Below are positions 4,101 to 48,594 of a stretch of 64,000 bases of DNA, piece after piece. The notes beneath the pieces are model-generated. The model saw only the letters and a program-made list of their open reading frames with translations. It had not been told where the DNA came from and made no database searches. A program made the position numbers and the translations under genes. Source of the stretch: Candidatus Levyibacteriota bacterium (GTDB taxonomy: Bacteria > Patescibacteriota > Microgenomatia > Levybacterales > UBA12049); assembly GCA_016214555.1 (NCBI GenBank), contig JACROF010000016.1:633-64632 (forward strand). Direction: 5' to 3'. Numbering within the stretch: the stretch's first letter is position 1; each line of letters starts with the position of its first letter.

Positions 4101-4154
4101 AAAGATACATTTAAAGATGTTGGAAAGGCTAGTATAAAAGGCGTAAAGCCATAA
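1122..4154 (+). CDS. large hypothetical protein (1010 aa; alternative ATG starts at 1146 or 1245); Gly/Pro/Arg-rich, GC-rich N-terminal ~190 aa, no TM or signal peptide seen
   Basis: long uninterrupted ORF; N-terminal 1140-1700 is noticeably more GC-rich than the rest; no recognisable catalytic motifs. Confidence 0.6.
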   Translation: MHLFYTSLMTERGPIFDPRSTRERGLTSSSQRPYANDGVLSMDNINQEQRVWDPIDTPVAGGGNTGERRPPQNQDIVARTPQEVAAKAAWRGAYGGIWPTDPEERRHVEEFIRNGLTPDALRGAMSQGGVGQRHPEQGPQSPGMIDLPDFVTDDEGNVYAPLAGSELAQREAMREAMSAPGIAIGSDSSEGLLRKNQLSAQEFEQFQRDLEKGKWVPEKFLRDKDVSGDLKINSVETLAYLIMDKEQDDDFKPGGAFELLNKKGEFQSHNFLHWVRNWMMYWHGEAPDAKHDFVNEINVTKDFGALALKQMIQSPGRFFRSWRAAGQGTNEDFQVYKELVEQIKRETWLFGASREFDIGYKENMGAEEQLAKVLQQIFYLNPFTKTVWDQKSSLYWIMNMPQRFKNVPEGGRQGDSNAGRALNTAYLVYYNIADEKMLTSLLGENTSLLNREALKHAVKKQMVEEKMTLVNGTVLDKDCLDRTKFTQSQVDAYINQVSDDDIVKYLSPENLLELNGKKDITDFINIFNQPQKSSRIQKVVRTIIQDELIKKYDLYVKDVDGNYVYETEIIKDVDGKPTKDEYGNYRRREVKHKAADGSEGERVRKKDTTTVSYANTFALSMARWTGAAARNDTFAVGFDAWSKLQNTEEYRAKQASPTRIGAFGNPKTLHMFKQLATDMMNGTMVMDGKMSIEVLEDMLSASEGSQEDYYKASSQLVFADNTMRSFTVDHMNRVFAIYGQIMNTEEIKLEKFVKHDLLYGLQLERGAFEKALKENFFKPMRYAWSTYAGLDLSKMVRTHNPSYKEYRKRYKEGDPRRDTDPRCQPYMEVHLAEAMFGRELLDIEAFWHKEKDAEGNEIKDKDGHAIVRKDIKDIKIDAKNWVDKIDWSKLASKEHKHMLWRRAAWGRIAAEIHAHRDRHSSDPKYNDWIYNEVIEALETIGDGVGGDEFNMQKSREQGKNLSEEEIQWMRKKAGITEGQIMRRAFFMDLLLSLKDTFKDVGKASIKGVKP

Positions 4155-4170
4155 TTATTCTTACCTCTTT

Positions 4171-5832
4171 TTATGACTTTCGTTTTCCTGTGTAGTGCTC
4201 GAAGCCTCTCTCATACCTTCCATAATTACTATCTCCTAAGAATCTATTGATAAAACCCCTTTTTCGTATTCTTGTAGCCCATGTGCCCGCACGACCTTTA
4301 TGGGGATCAAATTCAAATGATCTCTTTATGTATGCTCGTGGACCGGCAAGTGCTGGAGCAAATCCTCTGCCAAATCCTCCCTGTATAGCGCCGCTGACCA
4401 ATTTGTTAGGTTCTGAGTGGAATGTCTGGCGAGTGATAGTGAGGACTTCAGGAGTAATAAGAAGAATGGCAACAACAAGGACTCCTTGAATATGATTGGT
4501 GATTGCTGGGTTTCCAATAAGTGGAGGGAGATAGTAGGTGCCAGCAGGAGCAGTAGCGTTATTAAGATCATAGGTTGGGATAGTAGAGACAACGCGTGCT
4601 GCGACAAAGAAAAATGCTGTCACAGGGAAAACAGATAAATGGGCGAGCATATATCTAAGCCATGCAGTAAAACCATATTTGCTTCCGGGGATAAGCCCTG
4701 CTCCAATATAAAGTGGGGCAAGCATAGTCCCAATGAGAGTGTAGGCATAAGCTCGAAGGAGCGCAAACCATAACCTCACCATAGCATAAAGGAGAGCAAA
4801 AAGGATAACAACTGTAAAAAGTATATCTGCAATAACCTTGACAATTCCATGGAGAATTGATTGAGCACATGATCCAAGTGTGTTCCAAAAATCTGCAGAG
4901 CAATTTCCGTCTTTGAGATCTAAAGTTTCGGTGATGGTATCAGCAATAATATTTCCAATAGTCCCACCCGCGTCAATTGAGGTGCCTGTAATACCATCGA
5001 AGCTTCCCTGGCATCCTGTTGAGTTCCCAAATAACTCATTGAGGTAGACAATGGGGTTGTTGAGAAGTTGGCGATTGGCTGCTGCTTTGATAGCTTCGCT
5101 TTGATGAGTTTCAAGAGACGTAAGGTTGTTAGGATCTTGAGGATCGGTGCAACTTACTTTATCCGGGACTAAAATACTGATGCCGGTATAGGTGCTAAAC
5201 CACATCGCGTCCACCAAAAGACCTGCTATAGAAAAAGAAAACGTAATAAAAATAAGCGTGAGGACAATTTTGGGAAGTTGATTTTGGATAGACATTACAG
5301 TCTGGGGATTTATCTTAACTCTTAGCATAATGCCCATGCCTATAAAGACAAAAAGAAGGACCATCGCAACAAAGGTGATATTGCGAAGCTTAAGCCACAT
5401 CTCTTGAAGTGGGCTTAATTTATCAAAGCCTGTATTTTGAGCGTAAGTTTGTTTGGCTATGCCAAAATTGTTGGCAAAATATTTCATCGACTCAGACGTT
5501 GAGACTGGTTTTTGATACATAAAACCAATCATATTAGTCATTGTCCCGACAACACCGCCTATTTTTTGCTGAGAAGGAGCGGTCTCTAAATTTCCTGAGG
5601 CAGGGTTAATGCCTACGCATTCTGCTTGAGGATTGACGATATCGATTCCAGACAAAAAACATCCAATGGCAGAGCTCATATTGATGAGAATTTTTTGCAT
5701 GTCAACGCTGGTTGAGGTGGAGGTGGGCACAAGTGAGGTCTGTGCGTAGATTGGTGATGCGGTTCTACCTTGTACAGCAAAAAACACAAGAAGAAGCATG
5801 ATGCATGAAATGATTTTTATGGGCAGTCGCAT
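4171..5832 (-). CDS. polytopic membrane protein with N-terminal signal/anchor, ~110-aa extracytoplasmic segment, 6-7 TM helices and basic C-terminal tail; VirB6/TrbL-like topology (weak inference)
   Basis: hydrophobic segments IISCIMLLLVFFAV, ITFVAMVLLFVFIGMGIML, IVLTLIFITFSFSIAGLLV, ILFTVVILFALLYAMVRLWF, LIGTMLAPLYIGAGLI, VFPVTAFFFVAARVV, VLVVAILLITPEVL; convergent with the 1010-aa ORF. Confidence 0.6.
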   Translation of the reverse strand: MRLPIKIISCIMLLLVFFAVQGRTASPIYAQTSLVPTSTSTSVDMQKILINMSSAIGCFLSGIDIVNPQAECVGINPASGNLETAPSQQKIGGVVGTMTNMIGFMYQKPVSTSESMKYFANNFGIAKQTYAQNTGFDKLSPLQEMWLKLRNITFVAMVLLFVFIGMGIMLRVKINPQTVMSIQNQLPKIVLTLIFITFSFSIAGLLVDAMWFSTYTGISILVPDKVSCTDPQDPNNLTSLETHQSEAIKAAANRQLLNNPIVYLNELFGNSTGCQGSFDGITGTSIDAGGTIGNIIADTITETLDLKDGNCSADFWNTLGSCAQSILHGIVKVIADILFTVVILFALLYAMVRLWFALLRAYAYTLIGTMLAPLYIGAGLIPGSKYGFTAWLRYMLAHLSVFPVTAFFFVAARVVSTIPTYDLNNATAPAGTYYLPPLIGNPAITNHIQGVLVVAILLITPEVLTITRQTFHSEPNKLVSGAIQGGFGRGFAPALAGPRAYIKRSFEFDPHKGRAGTWATRIRKRGFINRFLGDSNYGRYERGFEHYTGKRKS

Positions 5833-14259: not shown

Positions 14260-14672
14260 GGTGGAGATGTCCGGGTGTGATCCGGAGTCCGAAAAAGTGT
14301 CTTACTAACATCTACAAGCGTAGTTGATTATTTTTGTGTCGCTTTCCCGTGGCCAGTCAACAGGTATAAGAAAGTCTACGTTTTAAAAATCTGGTATCAC
14401 ACAAAACGAGATGTGATCCTTGACCCAACTGTTTTATGCTCATAATGTCCCGTTGGGAAAGACATCATAAACATTCCTTAGTGCTTAAGCTAGTGCGTAA
14501 GCGGGTCGGAAACCTCCAAGGTTAGAGAGTTCTGCCAAAATGGCGTCACGCTCTGCCTTCAAGGCTGAAATGCTGTTTTTAGCATTTATTTTTGATCTTC
14601 TTTTTACGACTTAAAGATCAGCGTCGGCTTGCAGTTATTAAGGTACTATATCCGTCGAATCAAATCATCCCC
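14260..14672 (-). ncRNA. ssrA: tmRNA (ssrA), ~413 nt; tag reading frame ends ...GGFRPAYALA-UAA
   Basis: 5' end GGGGAUGAUUUGAUUCGACGG resembles E. coli GGGGCUGAUUCUGGAUUCGACGG; 3' end GGACUCCGGAUCACACCCGGACAUCUCCACC resembles GGACGCGGGUUCAACUCCCGCCAGCUCCACCA; lies in an ORF-free gap directly downstream of smpB. Confidence 0.8.
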
Positions 14673-15917: not shown

Positions 15918-17708
15918 CTAAAAGGTTAGCTGGTAGACTTTATCTCCTGAGAGAACAAAAGCACTCTTTTCATCATTTGATACGGTAAGGATGGTTGCAT
16001 TTTTGAGAATAGGAGCTTGGTATTCTGTTTGAAATGCGCCATCTGAGCTTAGCTTGACAATCCTTGAGGTAGCAGTATCCAGGATGTAGATATTGCTTAC
16101 ATCAGGAGAAGCAAAAAGATAGGTTGGTTTTGAAAATTGGTCTTTAAGACCTGAGATTTCAAAATCTGTTTTTATTCCTTTTGCATATTTCTCAATTGTT
16201 CCGTTGGAAAAAAGAATATAGACTGAGCTATCAATACCCAAGGATACAGCGCTACTAAGATTTGGCTTATCCTCTTTGAAATATGTTGAAAGTGCATAGC
16301 TATCGCTCGTTGGGACAAATTTTAAAAAGCCTTTACTCGTATCAAGGACATATATGTTTCCTCCGAAGACTCCCAGTCCCACCGGTTTTGTCCAATCTTC
16401 ATCATTGGTAATAATAGTCTCTTTCTTACTGGTGGATTTTGGTATTTTTGCAACAACTGTTTTAGTAAGGGTATACCAATTGTCCTCATCCTCAGCAACC
16501 GCGATAACACCCGATGATTTTTTGAGAGCAAGAAGTGGCGCATCGTCGTCTGGGACTTCAGCTGTTGATATCTTGCTTACTCCTTCGGTTTCTTGGAGTC
16601 TCTCGTTTATTTTTTGGGAGAGTTCATCAATTTTTATAGCCTCATCAGATCCTGGTTTGAATTTGCCATCAGCTTTTGCAAGTGTCTCCTTTGCCTTTTC
16701 ATAGTCATCGTGTGCGAGTGATTTATTGAGGCTTAAAAGTCCTTCAGCCTCGTCGTAATCTTTTTTAGCTGATGTGTAGATCTCATTAAAAAGGGCCTTG
16801 GTTTTTTGTGATTCTTTAGTTGAAAGGACAAGAACACTTGCGACGATTAAAACTCCGATAAGAAGAACCGCAATCCCAAGAGTCATTTTTCGACGAGCTG
16901 ATAACTGAATTTTTGGAAAAGTAATTGTTGGAAGTTTAAATGTCGACCCTTTTTTATTTTCTTGTTCCTCTGGGCCAAGAGGGGCTTCATGTTGGAAAGT
17001 TTTTTCTTGGTGGGAAGTAGCCTCAGGCGTAAAGGACTCAGTCTCCATTTTTTCATCAGGAGGCTCTTGTGTCTCTGGTAGGATTTGTTCATCTAGTGCA
17101 GGTTTCACAACCCCTTTAAATGAGATGATGATGGCTGAGGCTCCACCGTTTGACTCTCCGTGAATATGGGGAGAGATTGTTTCGGCTATATCGCTTGGCA
17201 GAGTAAATTCGAAAGCCTCAGTAATGGTTTTTGAGGGAACGCTTTGGAGAAATTGTGTTGTTTGAAGAAGAACAAGATCATCTGATGATAAATATCCTGA
17301 TGCGCTTGAGATGGTGCGATCATCTTTTGGATCTTCGTGAAGAATAGTGCCGATTTTCTCGCCTCTTTTGAGAGTGATTCGACCTCCTCCAAGAATAAAT
17401 CCATAGAGCGTATCCTCTTTGATATAGGCAAGAGATAGCGAGAGCAAGACTTTTTCATTAAGTTGATGGGTGGACTGGGAAAGCGCTTGCTTTATGGTTT
17501 CGAAAGATTTTTCCTCGAGTGCGAAAAATTCAGCTTCAATATTATTTAGAATTTCTTTTCCAAACGCAGGAAGTTCTTCTTGGAGCGCTTCGTCTTCTGT
17601 TAAAAGAGAGAGGACAATAAAGAGGCTCCCTGCGTTATATGCCTGAGACCATGTTGAAGCAGTTGGAGTTGCGACAATTTTTGCAAAACTAAGATTTGTT
17701 CCTGACAT
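15918..17708 (-). CDS. membrane-anchored protein: N-terminal cytoplasmic domain, one TM helix, C-terminal beta-propeller-like repeats (NIYVLDTSKG / NIYILDTATSRIVKL)
   Basis: ORF; TM LGIAVLLIGVLIVASVLVL; repeat pattern in the C-terminal half. Confidence 0.55.
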   Translation of the reverse strand: MSGTNLSFAKIVATPTASTWSQAYNAGSLFIVLSLLTEDEALQEELPAFGKEILNNIEAEFFALEEKSFETIKQALSQSTHQLNEKVLLSLSLAYIKEDTLYGFILGGGRITLKRGEKIGTILHEDPKDDRTISSASGYLSSDDLVLLQTTQFLQSVPSKTITEAFEFTLPSDIAETISPHIHGESNGGASAIIISFKGVVKPALDEQILPETQEPPDEKMETESFTPEATSHQEKTFQHEAPLGPEEQENKKGSTFKLPTITFPKIQLSARRKMTLGIAVLLIGVLIVASVLVLSTKESQKTKALFNEIYTSAKKDYDEAEGLLSLNKSLAHDDYEKAKETLAKADGKFKPGSDEAIKIDELSQKINERLQETEGVSKISTAEVPDDDAPLLALKKSSGVIAVAEDEDNWYTLTKTVVAKIPKSTSKKETIITNDEDWTKPVGLGVFGGNIYVLDTSKGFLKFVPTSDSYALSTYFKEDKPNLSSAVSLGIDSSVYILFSNGTIEKYAKGIKTDFEISGLKDQFSKPTYLFASPDVSNIYILDTATSRIVKLSSDGAFQTEYQAPILKNATILTVSNDEKSAFVLSGDKVYQLTF

Positions 17709-31334: not shown

Positions 31335-32597
31335 TTAATTTTCTCCTTCTTTACAGTATGGACATGTCACTTTAATGTTTTTAACAGCAGGAGGCGTTGG
31401 GCATGTTGAAGGTGAAGGGGAGGGTATTTCCTCTGTTGGCGTTGGAATGCTTGGGGATGGTGACACTGAAGGAGACGGCGAAGGCGAAGGGGAAGGTGAA
31501 GGAGACACGGAAGGAGATATAGATGGGGACGGCGTTGGTGGAGTAGGTGTTGGAACGACGGGTTTGCAGACACTAAGATTGGTATTGTAGTAGCCATCAA
31601 GATAGGTTTTTTTCCCTGTATACCAATTGTCAGGAAGATGGTATGAAGGAATAATAGCATTTTTAAAAACATCTATTTGCCATGCGCAGTTTGGTACGCT
31701 TACCGTGAGATAAATAGTTTTTTTTGGCTCTAGTCTATAGGTAAGTGCACTGTAGGGAGTTTGAGTCCAGATCCAGTCAAATTTATCGGGACATTCCTGG
31801 GGAGTGCAATCAGGATAAGGAACAGGATACTTGATATATGCTTGATACGAGGCAAGACCAACAGTATATGGTTGCGTAGACGACGTGTTGGTTATTTTTG
31901 CAAAGGCTTTACCATTTGATGACCCTTCAGTAACGCATGCTGTAAGATCTGGCTCAAAATTATTTTCATCTGCAACGCAGGTAAGAGAAGAAAAACCAGA
32001 TGGTACAGTTGTAGAGGTGGTACCTGCCACATAGCGGTTGCTACTAACTCTATAGGTGAAGGAAATTTGGTTATTATCATAATTACTTTCAGTTACGTGT
32101 TTGTTATAGTTAATAAAAGCTTTTGCTGTATATTGTCCAGATGATGATTTGCTCCAGAATTTATTTGTTATAAAATGACCTTTTTGTGCGCTCGTATAAA
32201 TAGAGTCATAGAGTTCGGATTGCTGGCTGGCAAATTGACCATTTTTCATCTCAACCCCGACATCAGATTTGGTGTTGGGGGCAATGACTGTTCCCTCTGC
32301 AACATTGCTATAAATTTGTGTATAGGTGCCATCAGCTGATACTCCTTTTGCCCCCCCTTGATTTTTGAGAGTGATGCGCACATAAATATCCTCATTGGGA
32401 GCAAAAACATCTCTCACATTTCCTCCAGCATCAGTAAGCTGGAGAGATTCCACAATCAGGTCTGCCTCAGTTGCTGCATTGGGAGTAAGGTTTTGTTGTC
32501 TTTGAGAAAGGAATACGACAAGAGGAATGCTTAGGAGAATAAAAAGAATTACAATAAGAGTAATCAATCTTTTTTTAGAACCTTGCGTGGTGTTCAT
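31335..32597 (-). CDS. secreted/anchored surface protein with CARDB-like domain, Ser/Pro repeats, Cys-rich C-terminus
   Basis: signal anchor; IVESLQLTDAGGNVRDVFAPNEDIYVRITLKNQG CARDB-like; SPSPSPSPS linker. Confidence 0.6.
   Translation of the reverse strand: MNTTQGSKKRLITLIVILFILLSIPLVVFLSQRQQNLTPNAATEADLIVESLQLTDAGGNVRDVFAPNEDIYVRITLKNQGGAKGVSADGTYTQIYSNVAEGTVIAPNTKSDVGVEMKNGQFASQQSELYDSIYTSAQKGHFITNKFWSKSSSGQYTAKAFINYNKHVTESNYDNNQISFTYRVSSNRYVAGTTSTTVPSGFSSLTCVADENNFEPDLTACVTEGSSNGKAFAKITNTSSTQPYTVGLASYQAYIKYPVPYPDCTPQECPDKFDWIWTQTPYSALTYRLEPKKTIYLTVSVPNCAWQIDVFKNAIIPSYHLPDNWYTGKKTYLDGYYNTNLSVCKPVVPTPTPPTPSPSISPSVSPSPSPSPSPSPSVSPSPSIPTPTEEIPSPSPSTCPTPPAVKNIKVTCPYCKEGEN
31395..31545. repeat. 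tandem nucleotide repeats encoding SPSPS linker
   Basis: GGCGAAGGCGAAGGGGAAGGTGAAGGAGAC periodicity. Confidence 0.6.
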
Positions 32598-38028: not shown

Positions 38029-38084
38029 TTGCTTTTTGCAATTAAAAGATTTATAAGATAAAACAAAACAACAACTATATCGGA

Positions 38085-38221
38085 AATCATGGTGACTCGA
38101 TCAAGTCAAGCGGGAATTCCATGGCTATGCCGTAACTGTACAGTCAGAAAACGATATATTTGTAATATTCTCCCGAGCAGGAATTCTTGTTAGATCCTTC
38201 TTGGGAAAGAAGGATTTTTTT
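38085..38221 (+). promoter_or_regulatory. candidate cobalamin riboswitch with terminator expression platform (CCTTCTT-ggga-AAGAAGG-TTTTTTT at 38196-38221) abutting the downstream ATG
   Basis: GGUG...GCGGGAAUUCC...GCCGUAACUGUA resembles B12-element blocks; intrinsic terminator directly before the start codon; genomic context is a B12 module. Confidence 0.4.
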
Positions 38222-38644
38222 ATGGTAAATAAAGACAAAAAACGAGTGGATTTAACGCCAATAAGGCGGTTAAAACTTTCTCTTCTGAGCGGATTTCTTT
38301 TTGTGATTATTATTGGTGTGATGTTTACTTTTTCACACAAGGTTTATGAGTCCGGTACTCACACAAATCAAAAAATATCTGAATATAGTCAAAAAGTGTC
38401 TGAAAGAGACTATTTTTCCTACCAGGGGACAAATGGGAAAGATGCTTTGGAAATGCTGCAAAAATTAACCAATGTCCAACAAGACAGTTCAGGTCTTGTC
38501 ATTTCAATTAATGGACGAAGAGCCCTATCTGATAAAAGAGAATATTGGTCATTTTTTGTTAATGTAAAAATGGCTGAAGTTGGTACTGCTGAATACCAGA
38601 CAAGCGATAAAGATTTTATTGAGTGGAGAATTCAAAAATATTAA
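38222..38644 (+). CDS. membrane-anchored protein; a B12-binding/uptake role is inferred from context only
   Basis: TM LSLLSGFLFVIIIGVMF; start placed at ATG 38222 because the TTG at 38201 lies inside the terminator hairpin. Confidence 0.45.
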   Translation: MVNKDKKRVDLTPIRRLKLSLLSGFLFVIIIGVMFTFSHKVYESGTHTNQKISEYSQKVSERDYFSYQGTNGKDALEMLQKLTNVQQDSSGLVISINGRRALSDKREYWSFFVNVKMAEVGTAEYQTSDKDFIEWRIQKY

Positions 38645-39165
38645 TGCGAGATTCAATTCTTTTCCCAATTTTTATTATTTTTCTTGGCGGTCTCATGCGA
38701 CTTGTGCCTCATGTTCCTAATTTCGCACCAATTACTGCAATAGCTCTTTTTGGAGGGATGTATATGAATAGGAAGTATGCTCTCATCTTGCCATTTATTA
38801 TTATGGTTATCTCAGATTTTTTTCTTGGTTTTCATGACACGCTAGTGTTTGTTTATGGAAGCTTTTTAATTTCTGGCTTACTAGGTCTTGGAGTAAGAGA
38901 GTATAAAACAGCGGGCCGAATTTTATTGATCACCATAGCAGCTTCAATACAATTTTTTATTATCACAAATCTTGGTGTTTTTCTTGCAGGACATATCTAC
39001 CCAAAAACAATACAAGGATTTATCGACTGCTATGTCATGGCCTTGCCATTTTTTCGCAATACTATTGTTGGTGATGTTTTGTTTACAACTTCGTTTATTC
39101 TCGCTTTTGAACTTCTAAAACAACTTGCTCACAAAGTAAAGCCTGCCTTAGTAAAGGAAAAATAA
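38644..39165 (+). CDS. 5-6 TM membrane protein, ECF-transporter S-component-like (putative vitamin uptake)
   Basis: size and topology; translationally coupled (ATG overlaps the upstream TAA). Confidence 0.4.
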   Translation: MRDSILFPIFIIFLGGLMRLVPHVPNFAPITAIALFGGMYMNRKYALILPFIIMVISDFFLGFHDTLVFVYGSFLISGLLGLGVREYKTAGRILLITIAASIQFFIITNLGVFLAGHIYPKTIQGFIDCYVMALPFFRNTIVGDVLFTTSFILAFELLKQLAHKVKPALVKEK

Positions 39166-39734
39166 TGCCGATATATACACGACGAGGAGACAAAGGACAA
39201 ACATCGCTTTTTGGAGGAACACGCGTTCTTAAATCAGACGAAAGGGTTGATACCTACGGGACTATCGATGAGCTCAATAGTCTTGTGGGGGTTGTTGTTG
39301 CACATATTGAAAATAGGCATAAAAAATTGGCGTCTTTTTTAGAGAGTATTCAGCATGATCTTTTTGATATCGGATCGTATCTTGCCAACCCCAAGGCGCT
39401 TCCCGTCAAAAGGCTTGAAGATAGAGTAGAGTTATTTGAAAAAGAGATTGATCACATGACAGAAAGAATGCCAGAGTTGCATAATTTTATTCTTCCAGGA
39501 GGAGGAAGGGTGGGGGCGAGCCTTCATCAGGCTAGGACTGTTTGTCGACGAACAGAAAGAAGGCTTGTTGCTCTTATCCAAAAAGAAGAAGTTGATGAGA
39601 CTGTTGTGAAATATGTTAATAGACTTTCGGATTTACTTTTTACGATGGCTCGTTTTGTCAATCACAAAGAAAAGAAAAAAGAAACAAAGTGGACTCGCCT
39701 CGATTCAATCGAGCCGAAGCTGGTTAAACAATAA
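39165..39734 (+). CDS. ATP:cob(I)alamin adenosyltransferase, PduO type
   Basis: MPIYTRRGDKGQTSLFGG N-terminal signature. Confidence 0.8.
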   Translation: MPIYTRRGDKGQTSLFGGTRVLKSDERVDTYGTIDELNSLVGVVVAHIENRHKKLASFLESIQHDLFDIGSYLANPKALPVKRLEDRVELFEKEIDHMTERMPELHNFILPGGGRVGASLHQARTVCRRTERRLVALIQKEEVDETVVKYVNRLSDLLFTMARFVNHKEKKKETKWTRLDSIEPKLVKQ

Positions 39735-39919
39735 TATCGGGTGAATCCTGTGCCCCGCATCGACTCAAATCGAGGCGAGAATTCAGGGCTGTGCCGCAAC
39801 TGTCCTTCGACAAGCTCAGGATAAATTTTTCTGAATTGTTTAGAGGGAAAAGTCAGATCCCCGTTGCCATCTTCCGAGCAGAAGGACATTTTTTGTACTC
39901 CTCGGAAAGGAGTTTTTTT

Positions 39920-41347
39920 ATGGAACGATTATCAACACTTAGTCATGTAATTAAAAAAGAAGCAGCAGCTCGCGTTGCTGGATCAGTACTGTCTTTGTCG
40001 GGGGGGTATAGTGATATGGCTTCAGATATTGCTTCACCTGCTCCTATTATCCGACTAGAGCAGGATGGAGGATTGCAGCGTTATCAGCAGGAGTTTGCAA
40101 ATATCTATGAGATCAGGCGTGATTTTGATAGTGCCCTCAATATAGATACGAGCTACAGACTTTTATCCTGGGATGCTGTTAAATCTCGTAATCGATTTGA
40201 ACAGTGTAGAGACAAAAGAGAGCAGTATGGCTGGCTAAAAAATGAATACAAAGATATCGCAAGCACTCTTCGTGAGCGCTATAACTGTCTTGAGAGCCCA
40301 ATGGATTTTTTTCTGGGTGAAGATGGCAATCTTTACAACAGTGAATTTCCAGCAGAGCCAATACTTACCATTATTGAGCGAGGAGTTTTGTATCAGGAGG
40401 CGCAGGGATCTCAAGAGATTGAGAGAGAGCGAAGCGAACTTATAGGCATTAGCAAAGTCCAGGAATATTTTGCCGACAAAGCAACAGAGATTGGCTCAAC
40501 CATGCTTCTTTTTTCACCACCAGGAACAGTCACAGGAAGTCCTTATGTTAAAAAATTTGTTGATAAATATGTACTAAGCGAAGATCCTGTGACAGGAAAA
40601 AGAATTGTGACGGGAAAGCGATACTCGACCATTATGTCATATCAAGAGTATCAAGATGCGGTTCTCTCGCTTGATCCTGTCTATTTTGACGATGAAGAAG
40701 GGACAATAGATGCTATTCTGCTTCGGAAGCCAATAAAGCTTGAAGGATTTGAGAATCACGAGAGGTTATTGGAGCAAATATTATCTTTTGATCCTGATGC
40801 ATTAACAGGATATGAGTTTGCGATTGTGGATATGATATGTGAACCGATAAAGCCACTTTTAATTGATGCGATAGTCAATTGGAATCCTAAAACAATCGCG
40901 CATATATTTAATACACTTTTGCATATTGGTGATGAGGCAAATGCTTTAGTAAGACAAGGTGATGTTGAAGGTATTAAAGCGATGTTGGTATGGAGTAGGA
41001 GTCTTGACCAAGAAAAGGCGGAGAAAGAGGTTGGGAGAAGAGGAAATCTTCCAATTGAGGTATTAGCTGTTGGTTGTGGTGATTCTGGTGGATTTTTTGA
41101 TAATAGTGTTGGACAGTTTGGTATAGCACCAGAAAATGACCCCAATTTGTGTAGATGTCAGGGAGCAAAGCCTCATTTTCATTGTGGAGGAAGCATCGAA
41201 CAGGCTGTAAAAGATGAAGATGGAAATGTTATCTATGATGAAACAGGAAAAGAAAAGATAGAAGAAATAACGTGCCAATTTAAAGTAATTGTCGGACATG
41301 GAGTAAAAAAATGTCCTGAGTGTGGTCGAGGCGCAGTCTGCGCCTAA
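39920..41347 (+). CDS. hypothetical 475-aa protein with C-terminal Cys clusters (CRCQ...HFHCGG, CPECGRG); SD AAGGAG
   Basis: ORF; start at ATG 39920 after AAAGGAG; the track ORF's upstream extension is discounted. Confidence 0.55.
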   Translation: MERLSTLSHVIKKEAAARVAGSVLSLSGGYSDMASDIASPAPIIRLEQDGGLQRYQQEFANIYEIRRDFDSALNIDTSYRLLSWDAVKSRNRFEQCRDKREQYGWLKNEYKDIASTLRERYNCLESPMDFFLGEDGNLYNSEFPAEPILTIIERGVLYQEAQGSQEIERERSELIGISKVQEYFADKATEIGSTMLLFSPPGTVTGSPYVKKFVDKYVLSEDPVTGKRIVTGKRYSTIMSYQEYQDAVLSLDPVYFDDEEGTIDAILLRKPIKLEGFENHERLLEQILSFDPDALTGYEFAIVDMICEPIKPLLIDAIVNWNPKTIAHIFNTLLHIGDEANALVRQGDVEGIKAMLVWSRSLDQEKAEKEVGRRGNLPIEVLAVGCGDSGGFFDNSVGQFGIAPENDPNLCRCQGAKPHFHCGGSIEQAVKDEDGNVIYDETGKEKIEEITCQFKVIVGHGVKKCPECGRGAVCA

Positions 41348-41417
41348 TTACTAAAGCTGGAGAACCGAAGCTAATTTCATTGTCTGATTTTGGTATTCGT
41401 GTTAAGATAGTCATACT

Positions 41418-41915
41418 ATGGATAATTCCCAAAATACAACACCACCTCCTGTTCCTGTCTCAAATCAGACTTTGACCATGGATCCAAATCAGATGTCGCT
41501 TCCTCAAGCTCAAAAGCCTTTACCTCAGGCGCCTCAGGGAATTCAGGCTCCTCCTCAGTACAGAGGTGGAGGTCCTCATAAGGAAGTGGCTCCAGTACCC
41601 CAGGCGCCCGTTGCTGAATATATTCGTCCAACTGAAGTAACACCGCAACTCCACCCAGAACTCCAGGAGGCAGGCGTAGAGACGGTGGAGAATAAAGAGC
41701 AGCCGATTCTGACGCAAGATCACAAGCAAGCAGGCATAGAATATGCAAGAGAAGCAACACCAGTTGTTATTCCACAACCCACAACAATCACATTGCCTTA
41801 TGCTTTAGATGAGGCAAAGCAAATTACCAAAAAAGTTTCTACCTCTGAATCAAAACATTGGCTCGCAGCCCTTACTGAGTATATTGTTCGAAAATTGCAG
41901 GCTGTTTCTGCCTAA
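41418..41915 (+). CDS. Pro/Gln-rich low-complexity protein; its stop is 4 nt from the downstream ATPase start
   Basis: ORF; compositional bias. Confidence 0.45.
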   Translation: MDNSQNTTPPPVPVSNQTLTMDPNQMSLPQAQKPLPQAPQGIQAPPQYRGGGPHKEVAPVPQAPVAEYIRPTEVTPQLHPELQEAGVETVENKEQPILTQDHKQAGIEYAREATPVVIPQPTTITLPYALDEAKQITKKVSTSESKHWLAALTEYIVRKLQAVSA

Positions 41916-41918
41916 TAT

Positions 41919-44276
41919 ATGGAAATACAGTCATTACTTATTACGTTTTTTGGAGGTATTTTTCTTATCGCTTTAATAGTACTTGTTCTTCTTGCGATAG
42001 GGTATATGGTGTTGTTGTGGATGAGGAACAAAGGGCGTGAGGCTGAGTCGCTTAGTTCGGTATTAATGCAGGTATCATTGCCTCGAGATAATGAGATTAA
42101 AATTGATGCAGCAGAGCAATTATTTGCGAGCCTTGCATCGCTTCGAAAATCAAAGAGATTAGATTATTTTAGTAGACAGCCACACGTTTCATTTGAAATT
42201 GTAGGCACCCCAGGCGATGTAAGGTTTTATATCAATGTCCCCATAAAGTTAAAAGATTTTATTGAGAAACAGATTAATGGATCATATCCAGACGCAGAAA
42301 TTGTTCAAGTAAATGATCCTGCTGCTAAGCAAAAAGAAAATGCGACAATTGCAGGTGAATACAATATTTTTTCCGATGCAGGAAAGGTTGCTTTTGCTTC
42401 CTTATCCCTTAAGCACGATGATTTTAAGCCGATCAAAGTCTTCAAAGACTTAGCCGTTGATTCGATGGCATCGGTTACATCTGTTCTTGCCAAAATGGGT
42501 GAAGGAGAAGGCGCTGCAATTCAGATACTTATTCAACCTGCAAATCCAAGATGGAAAGAGTCGGGGAAAGCATATCTTTCTAAGACAAAAAAGAATGAGT
42601 CAAATCCTGAGACCGCAAAGTACTCCTCTGATGCAAAAGAGCTTGAGGCGATCGAGAATAAACTGAGTAAACCTGGGTTTAACACAATAGTTCGACTTGT
42701 GGTTTCTTCAAGCTCCAAAGAAGCAGCAGATGCACATTTGAGCAATCTTATCGGTTCGTTTTCTCAGTACTCAGGAGTAAACATGTTTGGGAAAAATAAA
42801 CACTGGCTTAAAGGTCTTTTTGTTACTGATTTCATCTATCGCTATTTCCCTATGAGAGGACACACATCTGTCTTGACAAGTGATGAGCTAGCTACCATTT
42901 TTCATTTTCCTAATAAAAGTGTTCAAACGCCAGGAATTCATTGGGTGACCTCAAAAAGAGCTCCAGCTCCGGCAAGTATCCCAACTGAAGGGCTCTACCT
43001 TGGCAAGAGCACATTTCGAGGCATTAGTCGGCCTGTCTTTATTCAGGAATCAGATAGACAACGACATATGTATATCATTGGGAAAACTGGTACCGGAAAG
43101 TCAGAATTTCTCAAGCAATCTATCATGCAGGATATCAAAAATGGGGAAGGACTAGCAGTTATCGATCCTCATGGTGATTTAATTGAAGATATTCTTCAGC
43201 TTATGCCCCCTGAGAGGTCTGAGGATGTTATTCTTTTTGATCCATCTGATCTTGAACAACCGCTTGGTTTTAATATGCTTGAGGCTCAAAACGAGCAGCA
43301 GAGACATTTGGTTGTGACATCAGTTATTGGACTTATGTACAAACTATTTGATCCTAACAAAACGGGAATTATTGGACCTCGATTTGAACACGCTGTTAGG
43401 AATGCGATGCTTACGTGTATGTATCAGCCTGGAGCTACTTTTATGGAGGTAGTTCGCGCCCTCACTGACCCCGCTTTCGTCCAGGAGCTTTTGCCACGAG
43501 TTGAAGACCCTGTTATCAGAAGATATTGGACAGATCAGATTGCTCAGACGAGTGATTTTCACAAATCTGAAGTGCTTGATTATATCGTTTCAAAATTTGG
43601 TCGTTTTGTTACCAATAAAATGATTAGAAACATCATAGGTCAGTCAGAAAGTGCTTTTAATTTTAGAGAGGCGATGGATACCAAAAAGATTCTTCTTATC
43701 AATCTTTCAAAAGGAAAAATTGGCGAAGAGAACTCAAGCTTTTTGGGGCTCATTCTTGTGCCAAAGATTTTGGTTGCTGCAATGTCGCGACAGGATATGC
43801 CTATGGAAGATCGCAAGAACTTCTTCCTTTATGTTGACGAGTTTCAGAATTTTGCTACACCTGATTTTGCCCAAATTCTTTCAGAGGCTCGAAAATATCG
43901 CCTTAATTTGATCGTTGCCAATCAGTTTGTTGGACAGATGGAGGAGGAGGTCAAGAATGCTATTTTTGGAAACGTAGGAACAATTGCCGCTTTTCGAGTA
44001 GGTGTTACTGATGCCAATTATCTTCAGCACGAGTTTCAGCCTGTTTTTACGGAGGCCGATTTGATAAATATAGATAGATTTAATTGTTATATGAGGACTA
44101 TTGTTGGTGGCGAGCCTGTCCCTCCTTTTTCACTCGACACGACAAAGGATGTCGAGGCTGAAAAAAGGATGCGTGATCCTCGAGTTGCAGAGCTTGTCAA
44201 AGAATTGTCTCGTCTTAAGTATGGTCGTAATGCACAGATTGTCGAGGCTGAGATTGCTCAACGGTCGCGACTTTAA
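41919..44276 (+). CDS. membrane-anchored P-loop ATPase of the HerA/VirB4/VirD4 (T4SS-type, DUF87-like) clade
   Basis: N-terminal TM ITFFGGIFLIALIVLVLLAIGYMVLLW; Walker A IIGKTGTGKS at ~aa 388; VIDPHGDL; Walker B LYVDEFQNF about 250 aa later. Confidence 0.7.
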   Translation: MEIQSLLITFFGGIFLIALIVLVLLAIGYMVLLWMRNKGREAESLSSVLMQVSLPRDNEIKIDAAEQLFASLASLRKSKRLDYFSRQPHVSFEIVGTPGDVRFYINVPIKLKDFIEKQINGSYPDAEIVQVNDPAAKQKENATIAGEYNIFSDAGKVAFASLSLKHDDFKPIKVFKDLAVDSMASVTSVLAKMGEGEGAAIQILIQPANPRWKESGKAYLSKTKKNESNPETAKYSSDAKELEAIENKLSKPGFNTIVRLVVSSSSKEAADAHLSNLIGSFSQYSGVNMFGKNKHWLKGLFVTDFIYRYFPMRGHTSVLTSDELATIFHFPNKSVQTPGIHWVTSKRAPAPASIPTEGLYLGKSTFRGISRPVFIQESDRQRHMYIIGKTGTGKSEFLKQSIMQDIKNGEGLAVIDPHGDLIEDILQLMPPERSEDVILFDPSDLEQPLGFNMLEAQNEQQRHLVVTSVIGLMYKLFDPNKTGIIGPRFEHAVRNAMLTCMYQPGATFMEVVRALTDPAFVQELLPRVEDPVIRRYWTDQIAQTSDFHKSEVLDYIVSKFGRFVTNKMIRNIIGQSESAFNFREAMDTKKILLINLSKGKIGEENSSFLGLILVPKILVAAMSRQDMPMEDRKNFFLYVDEFQNFATPDFAQILSEARKYRLNLIVANQFVGQMEEEVKNAIFGNVGTIAAFRVGVTDANYLQHEFQPVFTEADLINIDRFNCYMRTIVGGEPVPPFSLDTTKDVEAEKRMRDPRVAELVKELSRLKYGRNAQIVEAEIAQRSRL

Positions 44277-44339
44277 CCTTCATTTCAGAAGTTCTTTCTG
44301 CTACAATCGTGCTATTCGTTTTGTGCTTTGTGGAGTTTT

Positions 44340-44411
44340 GGGTGTGTAGCTCAGTGGTAGAGCGCTATCCTTATAAGATAGATGTCCTTGGTTCGATCCC
44401 AAGCACACCCA
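44340..44411 (+). tRNA. tRNA-Ile with anticodon TAT (UAU)
   Basis: GGGTGTGTAGCTCAGTGGTAGAGCGCTATCCTTATAAGATAGATGTCCTTGGTTCGATCCCAAGCACACCCA; anticodon loop cuUAUaa. Confidence 0.75.
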
Positions 44412-44417
44412 CAAAGA

Positions 44418-45278
44418 TTAGAGCTCAGAGAGAGAAGAAGTGTCTTTTGCGCGGTCTTTTACGTACTCCAAATATCTTTCAGTTGTTGAAATTCTCTTGT
44501 GACCAAGAATCTTTGAAAGAAGGACAAGCGACACACCGTGTTTGAGGTGGTGTGCTACAAAGGTGTGGCGAAGATCATTTACTTTAGCATTCTCAATCTC
44601 AGCGATTCTGAAATATCTCTCAATTGCTGTTCTAATATTACGTACAAGAAATGGTTTTCCTGATTTGGTAATAAAGACGTGGTCGTCTGTGACTTGTGGC
44701 CGGATCTTAAGATATGCATTTAAAGCCTCTTTACTTGGATGATTAAGCGGAACAACTCTCTCTTCATGTTTTTCGTAAGGCCTAATTGAGAGATTGCCAT
44801 CTTTAATATCAGAAAGGCGAAGCTCAGCGAGTTCACCAATACGGATGCCTGTCTGGAGAAGAAGTTCAATAATAGCAAACATGCGTGCGTCGTGACGAGC
44901 TGCATCGCGAAGAGCTCGATATTCAGTAGGTTTAAGAATTCGAGGTGGTGCAAGTTCATAGCGTGGATGTGAGACAAGTAGGGATGGATCATCAGTAATC
45001 ATCTCATTTACCTTAAGAAACCTATAAAACGTTCGTGTTGAGTTAAGCTTTCGAGAAAGAGATTTTGGCGTATAGCCTTTTTCTGACATTTTAGCCAAAA
45101 AAGCCTGAATATCATCTGAGCTCACGTCATGAACATGATGCTTGTCCATCTCCTCAAGAAATGAAGCTAACTGATCAATGTCTTTTCCGTATGCTAGAAT
45201 AGTGCTACTGGAGTGCTTCTTCCCTTTAAGAAAATCAATAAATTTTTGGTGGGCATTTCGTATCGTTGTTGGTTGCAT
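44418..45278 (-). CDS. tyrosine site-specific recombinase (XerC/XerD-size; integrase family)
   Basis: N-terminal SAM-like core-binding domain; C-terminal R...H..R...Y catalytic pattern (LRHTFVAHHL...GHKRISTTERYL). Confidence 0.85.
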   Translation of the reverse strand: MQPTTIRNAHQKFIDFLKGKKHSSSTILAYGKDIDQLASFLEEMDKHHVHDVSSDDIQAFLAKMSEKGYTPKSLSRKLNSTRTFYRFLKVNEMITDDPSLLVSHPRYELAPPRILKPTEYRALRDAARHDARMFAIIELLLQTGIRIGELAELRLSDIKDGNLSIRPYEKHEERVVPLNHPSKEALNAYLKIRPQVTDDHVFITKSGKPFLVRNIRTAIERYFRIAEIENAKVNDLRHTFVAHHLKHGVSLVLLSKILGHKRISTTERYLEYVKDRAKDTSSLSEL

Positions 45279-45371: not shown

Positions 45372-45722
45372 ATGAAAAGAATTCTTTACGTAATTATATT
45401 TATTTTCTCTCTCTTTATTATTAATAATTTGCTTCGTTCAATTTACAACCTTTGGCAGAAAAATGATCTTATTTCTGATGCTGTATCGCAACTTAATAAA
45501 GAAAAAAGAGAGTACGAAAAGCTGAGTGATCAGCTTGATAGAGTCAAAAAGATAGATTTTGTTGAGGAAGAGGCTCGAAATAAGCTTTTTTTGGTAAAAC
45601 CAGGAGAGCGAATGGTGATACTAGGTGATGTCAAAAAAGAAGGGAATAGGACAGGGTCTGAGAGTAAGCAGTACTCTTTTCATCCGTGGGGAGAGTGGAT
45701 ACAATTTTTGTTTGGGAAATAA
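45372..45722 (+). CDS. FtsB/DivIC-like septum formation initiator family protein
   Basis: TM plus coiled coil plus EEEARNKLFLVKPGE signature. Confidence 0.65.
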   Translation: MKRILYVIIFIFSLFIINNLLRSIYNLWQKNDLISDAVSQLNKEKREYEKLSDQLDRVKKIDFVEEEARNKLFLVKPGERMVILGDVKKEGNRTGSESKQYSFHPWGEWIQFLFGK

Positions 45723-45767: not shown

Positions 45768-46412
45768 CTAGGGAGCAGCTGTAGGCACCGTAAGTGGATC
45801 AAGCGTTCCTGACTCGTAAGCCTCTTGGGCTTTGGAGGTCAAAACGATCTGATACATCTTATCAAGTGCCTGTGGTCCGGTCCACGTTTGGTCACCGACT
45901 GTTGCCTTGAGGCGCGAGCTCGGGAAGCCAAACATGTTGACAATAGTCGACTTGAGAAAGCCGGTTTCTCGCCACGTATCATAGCTTTGTAGCATGTCCA
46001 GAAGCTTGTTCTGGATATTTTTGTACGCCTCTCGACCTGCGCTGATGTAGTCCTGGATCTTTCCCCACAACTCAGTGAGGCCGGTCAGATCAGGATACGC
46101 CTCGGAGATGGCTGTGAAAAGAGGAGATCCTGATCCAAAGCCATCTTCGTCATAGCGACCCTTGACCGCGTCCTCGAGGACTTGATCGAGCGCATCGGTA
46201 CCCGCCTGGGCAACGCCGACCAGCTCGTAGAAGCCGCTGATGTAGGTGGAAAGCTCGTTTTGATTGCTCAGATATTGAGCAGTGAGCTGATTCTCCCGTT
46301 TGATCCCCTCATTTCTGATGCCGTTGATGTAGCTGTAGATGCTGCCACCAATGACACAGAGAAGCAGGAGAACGACGAGGAATCCAATGCCCACTTTTTT
46401 TCCTAAACCCAT
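45768..46412 (-). CDS. membrane-anchored protein in a GC-rich segment (weak LemA-like resemblance)
   Basis: TM IGFLVVLLLLCVIGGSIY; GC about 50%. Confidence 0.5.
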   Translation of the reverse strand: MGLGKKVGIGFLVVLLLLCVIGGSIYSYINGIRNEGIKRENQLTAQYLSNQNELSTYISGFYELVGVAQAGTDALDQVLEDAVKGRYDEDGFGSGSPLFTAISEAYPDLTGLTELWGKIQDYISAGREAYKNIQNKLLDMLQSYDTWRETGFLKSTIVNMFGFPSSRLKATVGDQTWTGPQALDKMYQIVLTSKAQEAYESGTLDPLTVPTAAP

Positions 46413-46455
46413 GGAGTCTTCCTTTCTGTTTGCAAAGCGAAAAAAAATCTAGAAA

Positions 46456-47853
46456 CTAGTAGAGGTTGTAACCCCTCCTTCCATTGGTAATGGCGGCCAT
46501 AGCTATCCAGATAAAGCAACTGAGGATAAAGGCTGTGATCAAGATCCCAATCTTCTGTCCTTTTGTTGGCTCAACGTCAAGATAGTCAAAGCCACCTCCA
46601 TCGCCGCTTCCTCCATGCATAGAAACGCGTTTGAACGCAGTACCAGGGTCATCAAGACCCCAGAGTAAGCGTTCAAGCTCTCCATTGCCATGGATACTGC
46701 GAACATCGAGTTTGGTAGTGCCATCCTTTTTCGTTTTCTGGTAGAACTCGCTTTGCACCTGTCCGATAATGGTATCAGGCGTAAGTTGAGCTCCAGGAAA
46801 GCGATCTTTGATGGCTGTGAGGAGTGTCTCATTGCCAAGCGGCATGCCAGTTGTGGCACGAGCCCACGAGACGGTTTGGCCGTCAAGTGTCCCGATGACT
46901 ACAATGACGCTGTTTTTACTGATTGCGTCATCACCCCATATTTTGGGGTCTTGCCAGTATGCCTTGATAGCAAAAAGGTATCTGTCGGGATTTCCACTGA
47001 TCGTATCGTTTTGAACGATGACGAGGTGGACATCTCCTTGGAGCTCTCCTCCAAATCCGGCATTGAGGTAGTTAAGTGACCTCTGCCAGCCTTGGGGATC
47101 TGCAGGAGCAAATCCGACGAATGATACTTTGTCTGCAAAGTAGGTGTTCGTGATGTTGTGGACGATTTTTGGCAGCAAATTTTGCGATTTGTACTCATCA
47201 ATTGAGTCGCTGTACTGCCGCAAGATCGTCTGTTCGCTTGCTAGGATATAGTTGTCATACTGCATCCTTGCTGTCACTGGACCTGGGTGGCCACTATTTA
47301 TCCGATCTCTGGCATCAAGCCAAAGCTGCGGAGTTTTGTAGTCACTTTCACCAAATCCCCATGGAAGCCCAGACGTTTTTTTGTGGGCTTTGTAGTTTTC
47401 TGGAGCGAGAGGTCCAAATGAATAGGTCTTGATCGTAGTTTCGATATAGAGCCTGCGCTCAAAGTCGAAATACGGGCATTCATCGCAACGTTTTTCTTGG
47501 TGAGATGCAGTACACATCCCGTTTTTGTCGTAAGCGTCACAAACCGTGACCCAGTAGCAGTTGCATTCATAGGTGAAACGGCATGAGCCATTTGTATGGC
47601 ATGTGGTTGGTACTTCTGAAGTAGCAACCTCCCAGCCGTTCCAGTACTCATTGAATGAAAGCTTCTCAGCCTTGGCTAGGTTCCATCCCGCAAGTCCGGT
47701 CAGAGGGGCAATGACGATCACAATGATCGCTGATCCGAGGATTAGTTCGTTTACCGTGATCTGTGATTCGCCTCTTGTCCAGTTGAGGATTGCCTTCAGA
47801 AGGCATCCTGCCAAAATTGCAAGAAAAGCTGCAAGAAATACGATTGGCCACAT
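46456..47853 (-). CDS. large membrane protein with N- and C-terminal TM helices and a Cys-rich extracytoplasmic domain, GC-rich; start set at ATG 47853 (SD AAAGGAG), the track ORF uses an upstream TTG
   Basis: ORF; a 5'-UTR hairpin GTAGGGCA...TGCCCTAC lies at 47872-47909. Confidence 0.55.
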   Translation of the reverse strand: MWPIVFLAAFLAILAGCLLKAILNWTRGESQITVNELILGSAIIVIVIAPLTGLAGWNLAKAEKLSFNEYWNGWEVATSEVPTTCHTNGSCRFTYECNCYWVTVCDAYDKNGMCTASHQEKRCDECPYFDFERRLYIETTIKTYSFGPLAPENYKAHKKTSGLPWGFGESDYKTPQLWLDARDRINSGHPGPVTARMQYDNYILASEQTILRQYSDSIDEYKSQNLLPKIVHNITNTYFADKVSFVGFAPADPQGWQRSLNYLNAGFGGELQGDVHLVIVQNDTISGNPDRYLFAIKAYWQDPKIWGDDAISKNSVIVVIGTLDGQTVSWARATTGMPLGNETLLTAIKDRFPGAQLTPDTIIGQVQSEFYQKTKKDGTTKLDVRSIHGNGELERLLWGLDDPGTAFKRVSMHGGSGDGGGFDYLDVEPTKGQKIGILITAFILSCFIWIAMAAITNGRRGYNLY

Positions 47854-48091
47854 GGGAAACTCCTTTGCATTGTAGGGCAAAAGTCTGCCGTTCAAGTCGC
47901 ATGCCCTACGGCCTCAACGACAGACTTTTGCAAATAGAGATTCACTGTTAATGTGCAAAAAAATTGGCGAGAGCAATTTCCAAAAGATATTACTATCGCA
48001 TGCGGTATTGTAGCAGAGGAGAGGGTAAAATGTCAATGCTATAGGACATACTATACATAATGAGATTTAGAAGTGGTAGGAATATGCATGT

Positions 48092-48119
48092 CTCCCACTA
48101 CTACAAAGAGTAGTGGGAG
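48092..48119 (-). terminator. 11-bp perfect hairpin (CTCCCACTACT-acaaag-AGTAGTGGGAG) after the 48136..48594 gene
   Basis: seen in sequence; no U-run. Confidence 0.5.
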
Positions 48120-48135
48120 AGATAGTTAGCTTTAG

Positions 48136-48594
48136 CTAAAAAATAAGAAAAGAGATGAGCACATTGATAACGCTCAGGAACAGGAAGATAGTGAGAGCGT
48201 TTGAGTATTCTACTATCTTGTCAGATGTACCGCGGAGATACTTCAAGGCCATAGGCTTGGATGCTTCAAGCTCGATATTACATTCAGTATCTCCCTTGAA
48301 AAGCCAATTACCTGATGAAAGCTCATCATCAAGGTGGTAATACGTAATAGGGACTATTGGGTGTGGGGAGGCAAGTCCTTTTAACTCAGTTACCCCATTA
48401 GTAAAAGAAAATTCATATTTACTCCATGCTGTAATGTGTACTGGAATGTTAATGATAAAGCCTTTTTTTAAATGCATGTGAGGCTCAATCATGGTGCCGT
48501 ATTGATCGTTTATGACAATGTGTTTAATGTAGAGATATGTCACAAAGAGGATAGCGATTTCAAGAATGCAAAAGACAATCCAGTTCGTGGCCAT
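48136..48594 (-). CDS. small membrane protein (N- and C-terminal TM), hypothetical
   Basis: ORF. Confidence 0.5.
   Translation of the reverse strand: MATNWIVFCILEIAILFVTYLYIKHIVINDQYGTMIEPHMHLKKGFIINIPVHITAWSKYEFSFTNGVTELKGLASPHPIVPITYYHLDDELSSGNWLFKGDTECNIELEASKPMALKYLRGTSDKIVEYSNALTIFLFLSVINVLISFLIF

Follow-up and report, generated by a model that had tools for sequence, protein, structure and literature searches.

The locus at positions 39920 to 45278 of the window, i.e., of the 64,000-nt stretch of a Candidatus Levybacteria metagenome-assembled genome (MAG) that was analysed as a whole, encodes proteins of 475, 165, and 785 residues followed by a tRNA-Ile(UAU) gene and an Xer-type tyrosine recombinase (Table 1). 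The largest of these proteins is a membrane-anchored ATPase, and we find that it is a single, vertically inherited, chromosomal homologue of VirD4-type type IV coupling proteins (T4CPs) and a core gene of the Levybacteria. Its start codon lies 3 nt past the stop codon of the 165-aa open reading frame (ORF), 70 nt separate the latter from the 475-aa ORF, and the mechanically called ORF of the 475-aa gene reaches back to a GTG at 39791. The initial annotation of this DNA had described the same ORFs, motifs, and spacings, and all of them were found again with small corrections only: the tRNA gene begins 63 nt instead of 60 nt past the ATPase stop codon, and the recombinase stop codon lies 5 nt instead of 7 nt past the tRNA. 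Comparisons were made with 80 related loci, one genome per species (L-numbers denote such loci and P-numbers denote homologous proteins).

Table 1. Features of the ATPase locus and its flanks (window coordinates)
Feature	Position	Strand	Remarks
Cobalamin context	38065-39734	+	AdoCbl-II riboswitch, DUF4430, DUF6580, PduO-type cobalamin adenosyltransferase (Rfam, Pfam)
AdoCbl-II riboswitch	38065-38162	+	Rfam RF01689, 37.6 bits (gathering cut-off 36.5)
475-aa ORF	39920-41347	+	GGAAAGGAG Shine-Dalgarno 8 nt before ATG
165-aa ORF	41418-41915	+	23 Pro, 18 Gln, zero Cys, no hydrophobic segment
785-aa ATPase ORF	41919-44276	+	transmembrane anchor, DUF8128 N-domain, TrwB/TraG-type motor
ATPase, membrane anchor	41931-42017	+	hydrophobic aa 5-33 (29 residues), then basic RNKGR
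ATPase, DUF8128 N-domain	42051-42923	+	~aa 45-335
ATPase, P-loop motor	43044-44018	+	~aa 376-700
ATPase, Walker A GKTGTGKS	43080-43103	+	aa 388-395
ATPase, IDPHGDL motif		+	aa 415-421
ATPase, Walker B FLYVDE	43824-43841	+	aa 636-641 (with FQNF to 645)
tRNA-Ile(UAU)	44340-44412	+	ARAGORN and Rfam concur, 72.7 bits
Tyrosine recombinase (Xer-type)	44418-45278	-	Pfam Phage_integrase and SAM-like domains
DivIC/FtsB	45372-45722		Xer gene divergently placed beside it

Kyte-Doolittle windows above 1.6 are confined to the N-terminus of the ATPase and mark one hydrophobic segment, and a transmembrane (TM) segment within the first 40 residues is found in 231 of 233 members of the family. The single N-terminal TM segment, Walker A around residue 388, DPHGDL motif, and Walker B about 250 residues further on that the initial annotation had pointed out were all seen, and the stretch between the two Walker motifs is spanned by an alignment to Pfam TrwB_AAD_bind (33.9 bits against a cut-off of 20.5, 2.2e-8, residues 376-683). 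Pfam DUF87 likewise exceeds its gathering cut-off, TraG-D_C reaches 25.7 bits against a cut-off of 22, and homologues of the ATPase additionally bear T4SS-DNA_transf (PF02534). AAA_10 and CagE_TrbE_VirB gave no Pfam match on the ATPase, and FtsK_SpoIIIE stayed at 16.9 bits against a cut-off of 24, covering only residues 368-400 and with no match to the gamma domain. The informative NCBIfam matches are all to coupling-protein models (a CD1115 VirD4-like model and several of TraD), and a sequence search of the PDB returned the T4CPs TrwB and DotL as the sole matches. Judged by its sequence, the ATPase is a member of the VirD4/T4CP branch of the FtsK-HerA superfamily and neither an FtsK nor a VirB4; the earlier call, which had placed it in the HerA/VirB4/VirD4 branch and not with FtsK, agrees with three coupling-type Pfam models above and FtsK_SpoIIIE below their cut-offs.

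With canonical T4CPs such as TrwB, VirD4, TraD, and DotL, the ATPase shares the motor (TrwB_AAD_bind and TraG-D_C), a predicted N-terminal anchor, and the motif set GxxGxGKS...DPxGD...hhhhDE. However, canonical T4CPs have two TM helices with a loop instead of one hydrophobic segment, TrwB has no counterpart of the additional cytoplasmic N-domain of ~300 residues, and the NCBIfam equivalog models TraD, SXT_TraD, and CD1115 VirD4-like reach at best 48.2 bits against a cut-off of 250. Genes for a relaxase or for mating-pair formation (MPF) were found neither among the neighbours of the ATPase gene or the ten largest ORFs of the window nor in the related loci. Similarly, the absence of type IV secretion system (T4SS) structural genes noted initially was borne out in that no VirB-type component, including virB3-, virB6-, or virB8-type genes, lies among the neighbours or these ten ORFs, which are housekeeping genes or encode proteins without assignment (smaller, more distant ORFs were only partly scanned). 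FtsK/SpoIIIE proteins share with the ATPase the superfamily, a membrane anchor, and, in this lineage, the adjacency to Xer, but differ from it by their gamma domain, by the sub-threshold Pfam match, by the single TM segment of the ATPase, and by the loss of Xer adjacency outside the Microgenomatia. The NCBIfam model helicase_HerA gave 11.2 bits against a cut-off of 970, and NurA was not seen nearby.

The N-terminal ~300 residues of every homologue listed, including the 92%-identical P0001, carry a precomputed match to DUF8128 (PF26449), from which the same domain was assigned to the window ATPase. We modelled residues 36-372 using 33 homologues (predicted local distance difference test 74, predicted TM-score 0.75), and the best 14 Foldseek matches of this model are all chains of TrwK, the VirB4 of R388, with E-values from 7e-8 to 2e-6; the model thus shows a VirB4-type N-terminal fold. 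Since the modelled query does not contain the P-loop, the match was placed in the N-terminal region of VirB4 (the tools did not report the aligned TrwK residues), and we infer that DUF8128 may correspond to the part of VirB4 that docks on the inner-membrane platform. Beyond this shared fold, the ATPase is set apart from VirB4 by the missing AAA_10 and CagE_TrbE_VirB signals and by its gene context, as the VirB4 neighbour VirB3 has a TM helix while the 165-aa protein upstream of the ATPase has none. Levybacteria moreover possess a separate VirB4 besides this ATPase.

Full-length relatives of the ATPase (20-30% identity over 82-94% of the query) are encoded on Bacillus and haloarchaeal plasmids and by Bacillus and Geobacillus phages, and further matches lie on plasmids of Streptomyces, Staphylococcus, Clostridium, and Sulfolobus. 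On the B. subtilis plasmid NZ_CP032854.1, the 886-aa DUF87 protein WP_121549396.1 is encoded directly upstream of genes for a replication-relaxation relaxase, a member of the TcpE family, and a VirB4-like ATPase with AAA_10. Its identity to the window ATPase is only ~25-28%, but hhalign aligned the profile of the window family with it over 640 columns including the N-domain (probability 99.9, E 5.5e-37), while the VirB4 of the same plasmid was aligned at the P-loop alone with a probability of 1.2%. The window ATPase therefore appears to be a coupling protein of the monoderm-plasmid type with a VirB4-like N-domain, though the T4CP role of WP_121549396.1 would itself be read from its gene position. 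Unlike these plasmid genes, which adjoin a relaxase, TcpE, and a VirB4-like ATPase, the window gene has no such neighbours and is part of the chromosomal core, and on full-length alignment we regard it as a domesticated relative of monoderm-plasmid proteins encoded beside a relaxase.

Among phages, 48 records, mostly of Bacillus phages, carry full-length homologues of this DUF8128 coupling-type ATPase (e.g., gp156 of Bacillus phage G), and gp48 of Geobacillus phage TP-84 (L082, 4785-7049) is a homologue sited among early and replication genes. To our knowledge, phages have no T4SS. Within the same motor family, P0181 (1506 aa) additionally bears N-terminal tetratricopeptide repeats and a zinc ribbon, and P0244 (1227 aa) has two tandem motors and an Ala/Arg/Pro-rich composition like that of high-GC genomes.

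Conservation of the ATPase is that of a housekeeping gene. A word-indexed search yielded over 7,600 close homologues, with identities of 71% or more throughout the best 120, and an exhaustive search returned 6,116 clusters (at 50% identity) with E <= 1e-30. All 80 related species loci contain the ATPase segment, with identities of 64-92%, residues 468-576 are nearly invariant, and the GC content and base composition of the region are ordinary. Compared to the nearest relative, L001, the ratio of nonsynonymous to synonymous substitution rates (dN/dS) is 0.025 for the ATPase, 0.029 for the class II ribonucleotide reductase (RNR), and 0.032 for Xer, rough values given that dS is saturated. The order NrdR, class II RNR, cobalamin genes, small ORF, ATPase, tRNA-Ile(UAU), Xer, DivIC, and a tRNA-Met pair is common to Levybacteria, Gottesmanbacteria, Daviesbacteria, and other Microgenomatia. 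This synteny, the presence in all related loci, and the low dN/dS contradict the initial view of an accessory, possibly mobile remnant. The annotation had itself named two observations that would speak against it, and these came apart: the neighbours are indeed conserved in synteny, but the ATPase does not belong to FtsK/SpoIIIE.

The recombinase next to the tRNA gene scores 168 bits with the XerC and XerD models, under their equivalog cut-offs. Its synteny holds in 54 of the 80 loci, with identities of 51-98% (98% in L001), and many of the remaining loci stop at a contig edge. No second copy of the tRNA-Ile 3' end, i.e., no att-like repeat, is present in the window. The recombinase is a conserved Xer-type gene beside DivIC/FtsB and not the integrase of a mobile element. 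The adjacency of ATPase, Xer, and DivIC holds throughout the Microgenomatia, including the Daviesbacteria, but both Xer and tRNA-Ile are absent at the ATPase loci of other classes of the candidate phyla radiation (CPR; L083-L085 and L088), so that the proximity of Xer to the ATPase looks like inherited gene order rather than functional linkage.

The tRNA-Ile(UAU) gene itself lies 3' of the ATPase gene in each of 50 loci scanned, though its orientation is inverted in 11 of them (L001, L004, L012, L023, L027, L030, L033, L034, L044, L052, and L055). A TACAAT -10-like box upstream of the tRNA inverts together with it in L004, and in L001 (10356-10675) a ~62-nt unit holding the 5' part of the tRNA recurs twice more, in direct orientation, behind the inverted tRNA. 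Several relatives have 0.5-7 kb inserted between ATPase, tRNA, and Xer. The junction of these three genes (44277-44417 in the window) looks like a hot spot of rearrangement and insertion.

The constant partner of the ATPase in the Microgenomatia is the 165-aa protein, whose tight coupling to it the initial annotation had noted correctly. In 68 of 72 loci, the ORF immediately before the ATPase gene belongs to the family of this protein, with a median gap of 18 nt, and the real unit at this locus is the two-gene pair of 165-aa protein and ATPase. ORFs of this family are 90-218 aa long and encode proteins that are acidic overall and mostly of low complexity, with the short conserved motifs KE..P and E..GVE. 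Only E56 and W148 are invariant; W148 sits in a C-terminal helix followed by a basic tail, and the last 25 residues are net positive in 90% of the members. No relatives of the protein were found in Pfam or the PDB, and neither the 165-aa nor the 475-aa protein matched anything in Pfam, NCBIfam, PHROG, or PADLOC, consistent with the earlier failure to assign the two to a described family. In other CPR classes (Moranbacteria-type and others), one large and one or two small ORFs, all without family assignment, stand before the ATPase. In P0129, an N-terminal extension resembling the 165-aa protein, with weak support from hidden Markov models, replaces the TM anchor.

By contrast, the 475-aa gene is part of the cobalamin-salvage cluster next to it and not of the ATPase unit. 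Of 61 loci with sequence reaching far enough upstream, 38 of the 48 with a cobalamin adenosyltransferase gene upstream contain it, as opposed to none of the 13 without (Fisher test 1.7e-7, a value inflated by shared ancestry). In L058 (26-2059), it lies within the cobalamin cluster and is separated from the ATPase by genes on the opposite strand, while in L064 (16800-18309) it follows the adenosyltransferase gene 6.5 kb downstream of the ATPase; conversely, several Levybacteria-like loci have no 475-aa gene, and there the adenosyltransferase gene abuts the small ORF. The 475-aa gene thus tracks the adenosyltransferase, and the supposed three-gene operon, in which the 475-aa protein would have been a partner of the ATPase, resolves into a cobalamin cluster ending in a Cys-rich gene and, behind it, the two-gene ATPase unit. 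Both the mobile element and the three-gene operon are removed as false leads.

The cobalamin cluster of the window stands right after the class II, B12-dependent RNR. Its tail gene encodes a cytoplasmic, fast-evolving protein (identical to NCBI HZC02_05245) whose identity to its homologues falls to 26% where that of the ATPase is still 84%. The C-terminal Cys clusters that had been noticed before form a Cys4-5 zinc-ribbon-like motif, and no fold assignment was obtained. A word-indexed search found only 7 homologues, and the 80 loci contain 49 ORFs of the family. This Cys-rich family, which may consist of uncharacterised cobalamin-handling proteins, is thus brought out as a separate unknown tied to cobalamin salvage. 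A hairpin (ACTCC-TCGGA-AAGGAGT followed by seven T) at 39897-39913 overlaps the Shine-Dalgarno site of the 475-aa gene and might either terminate the cobalamin operon or control translation; the number of terminators in the region is not above chance.

Orphan T4CP homologues of this kind have been noted before in the Patescibacteria, so that the ATPase family cannot be called undescribed, and its N-domain has a Pfam entry in DUF8128. A recent survey of 3,035 Patescibacteria genomes found VirD4-type T4CP homologues in 2,918 (~96%), 5,713 homologues in all, of which just 148 lie near virB4 (Quinonero-Coronel et al. 2025, PMC12102498). It lists two Levybacteria genomes with a VirB2-TrsD-VirB4-VirB1 cluster and a single distant T4CP recognised by the t4cp1 profile (Table S3 of PMC12102498), and remarks that exaptation "cannot be ruled out", as the T4CP homologue of Southlakia is non-essential. 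The window ATPase shares with these orphans the phylum, the annotation class, and the pattern (chromosomal, far from virB4, no relaxase, near-universal), and it is probably the Levybacteria copy of the orphan T4CP, a correspondence drawn from class and pattern that nothing observed contradicts. No domain analysis, partner, or synteny is given for the orphans in PMC12102498. Our finding is real but largely ordinary for the phylum, and what it adds is the match of DUF8128 to VirB4, the full-length homology to a plasmid protein encoded beside a relaxase, the constant small partner in the Microgenomatia, and conservation at the level of the RNR. These details turn the vague remark about exaptation into testable points, namely an interaction of DUF8128 with the membrane platform, the role of the partner, and co-occurrence with VirB4. 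The question matters for the whole group, as nearly every CPR genome keeps a T4CP-like ATPase without assigned function while the T4SS cluster of Southlakia, the one tractable species in which this system was shown to be essential for epibiotic growth, contains no recognisable coupling protein or relaxase (Wang et al. 2023).

We propose that the ATPase serves as substrate receptor and motor of a relaxase-less patescibacterial T4SS encoded elsewhere, a reading for which we consider the chances evenly balanced. By analogy to related T4CPs, it would form a membrane-bound ring and dock via DUF8128 on this T4SS (VirB2 pilins, TrsD, VirB4, and VirB1), and ATP would drive the recruitment of a substrate and its pushing into the secretion channel. 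This substrate is more likely a protein because no relaxase is present, and the 165-aa protein, which is acidic and disordered and ends in the conserved Trp helix and basic tail, might be a dedicated adaptor, a regulator, or the substrate itself. Several observations weigh against such a role. Any physical or genetic link to a T4SS is hypothetical, and the ATPase gene is never near virB4 in the related loci; the likeness to VirB4 is structural only, with no sequence signal in hhalign against a monoderm VirB4; and no homology to the 165-aa protein was detected for the small ORFs upstream of the ATPase in other CPR classes. T4CP homologues occur in more genomes than VirB4 (2,918 against 2,417), hinting at a T4SS-independent role, though MAG incompleteness confounds this comparison, and the Southlakia T4CP homologue, orthologous or not, was reported as dispensable where the T4SS is essential (PMC12102498). 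Furthermore, an effector accounts for conservation at housekeeping level no better than a universal ligand such as DNA does.

The main rival to T4SS coupling is a stand-alone membrane translocase, i.e., an exapted T4CP motor that would move DNA or another conserved polymer across or along the membrane independently of any T4SS, comparable to TraB of Streptomyces or the archaeal Ced ATPases and with the 165-aa protein as its regulator. We regard this as possible though rather unlikely. It would account for the lack of clustering with T4SS genes, the wider spread of T4CP homologues than of VirB4, the uncoupling of essentiality in Southlakia, the strong conservation, and the full-length relatives in Bacillus phages, but the closest full-length relative with informative context adjoins a relaxase and MPF module, and a docking domain like that of VirB4 makes little sense if there is no membrane platform. 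The weak matches to CedB and CedD in the Walker A region that could also be cited for it cover the P-loop only and remain far under their cut-offs. A bolder version of T4SS coupling, in our estimate an unlikely one, is that DUF8128 ATPases form a distinct old lineage of the VirB4/VirD4 clade that combines a VirB4-type docking domain with a VirD4-type motor and was domesticated in the Patescibacteria as the missing coupling ATPase of their essential, relaxase-less T4SS, with the 165-aa protein as adaptor or first substrate. If true, a domesticated coupling ATPase would offer a concrete handle on the cargo that CPR bacteria move into or from their host cells.

The remaining explanations fare considerably worse. 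Adjacency of a strongly conserved, membrane-anchored core ATPase to Xer and DivIC throughout the Microgenomatia could suggest a surrogate of FtsK, a pump working with these two proteins in chromosome dimer resolution at division, yet we find this very unlikely for a protein with one TM segment, no gamma domain, and an FtsK_SpoIIIE match limited to the P-loop; in addition, Xer is encoded on the opposite strand with a tRNA gene between, up to several kilobases of unrelated DNA separate the two genes in relatives, and the adjacency is gone in other CPR classes. An anti-phage defence ATPase akin to mad8, HerA, or DndH is more improbable still: PADLOC mad8 matches residues 380-680 (2e-13) and HerA and DndH match weakly at the P-loop, but all these matches are limited to the shared motor, no methylase, nuclease, NurA, or Sir2 gene is adjacent, no nuclease or modification partner is conserved, and core, syntenic, slowly evolving genes are atypical of defence islands. 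We grant equally little credit to an element integrated at tRNA-Ile, i.e., a remnant or minimal conjugation or secretion module with its own integrase. The tRNA gene does adjoin a tyrosine recombinase, the ATPase family is borne by plasmids and phages outside the CPR, and the junction is rearranged in some relatives (with inverted tRNAs and the partial tRNA duplications of L001). However, the context is the same in all 80 related species loci, substitution rates and composition are those of an ordinary core gene, the tRNA 3' end is not repeated, relaxase and MPF genes were not found, and the recombinase is the conserved Xer.

Apart from the ATPase locus, the real accessory insertion of the region is found at 45768-48594, between DivIC and the tRNA-Met pair, where the window has ~3 kb and close relatives have less than 100 nt. 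Its GC content is 0.47-0.50 compared to ~0.41, and it carries three minus-strand genes. A 214-aa TM protein (phrog_1383, 6.9e-30) and a 479-aa Cys-rich membrane protein (phrog_2087, 7.7e-18) encoded there are absent from all 80 related loci, and a 152-aa membrane protein has one weak match with 33% identity in L001. Elsewhere in the window, the large ORFs at 1122-4154, 4171-5832, 15918-17708, and 31335-32597 (1010, 553, 596, and 420 aa) gave no Pfam match at E <= 1e-5, and the tag peptide predicted for the tmRNA gene at 14260-14672 (413 nt), AKNSISALKAERDAILAELSNLGGFRPAYALA, is unusually long with its 32 residues.

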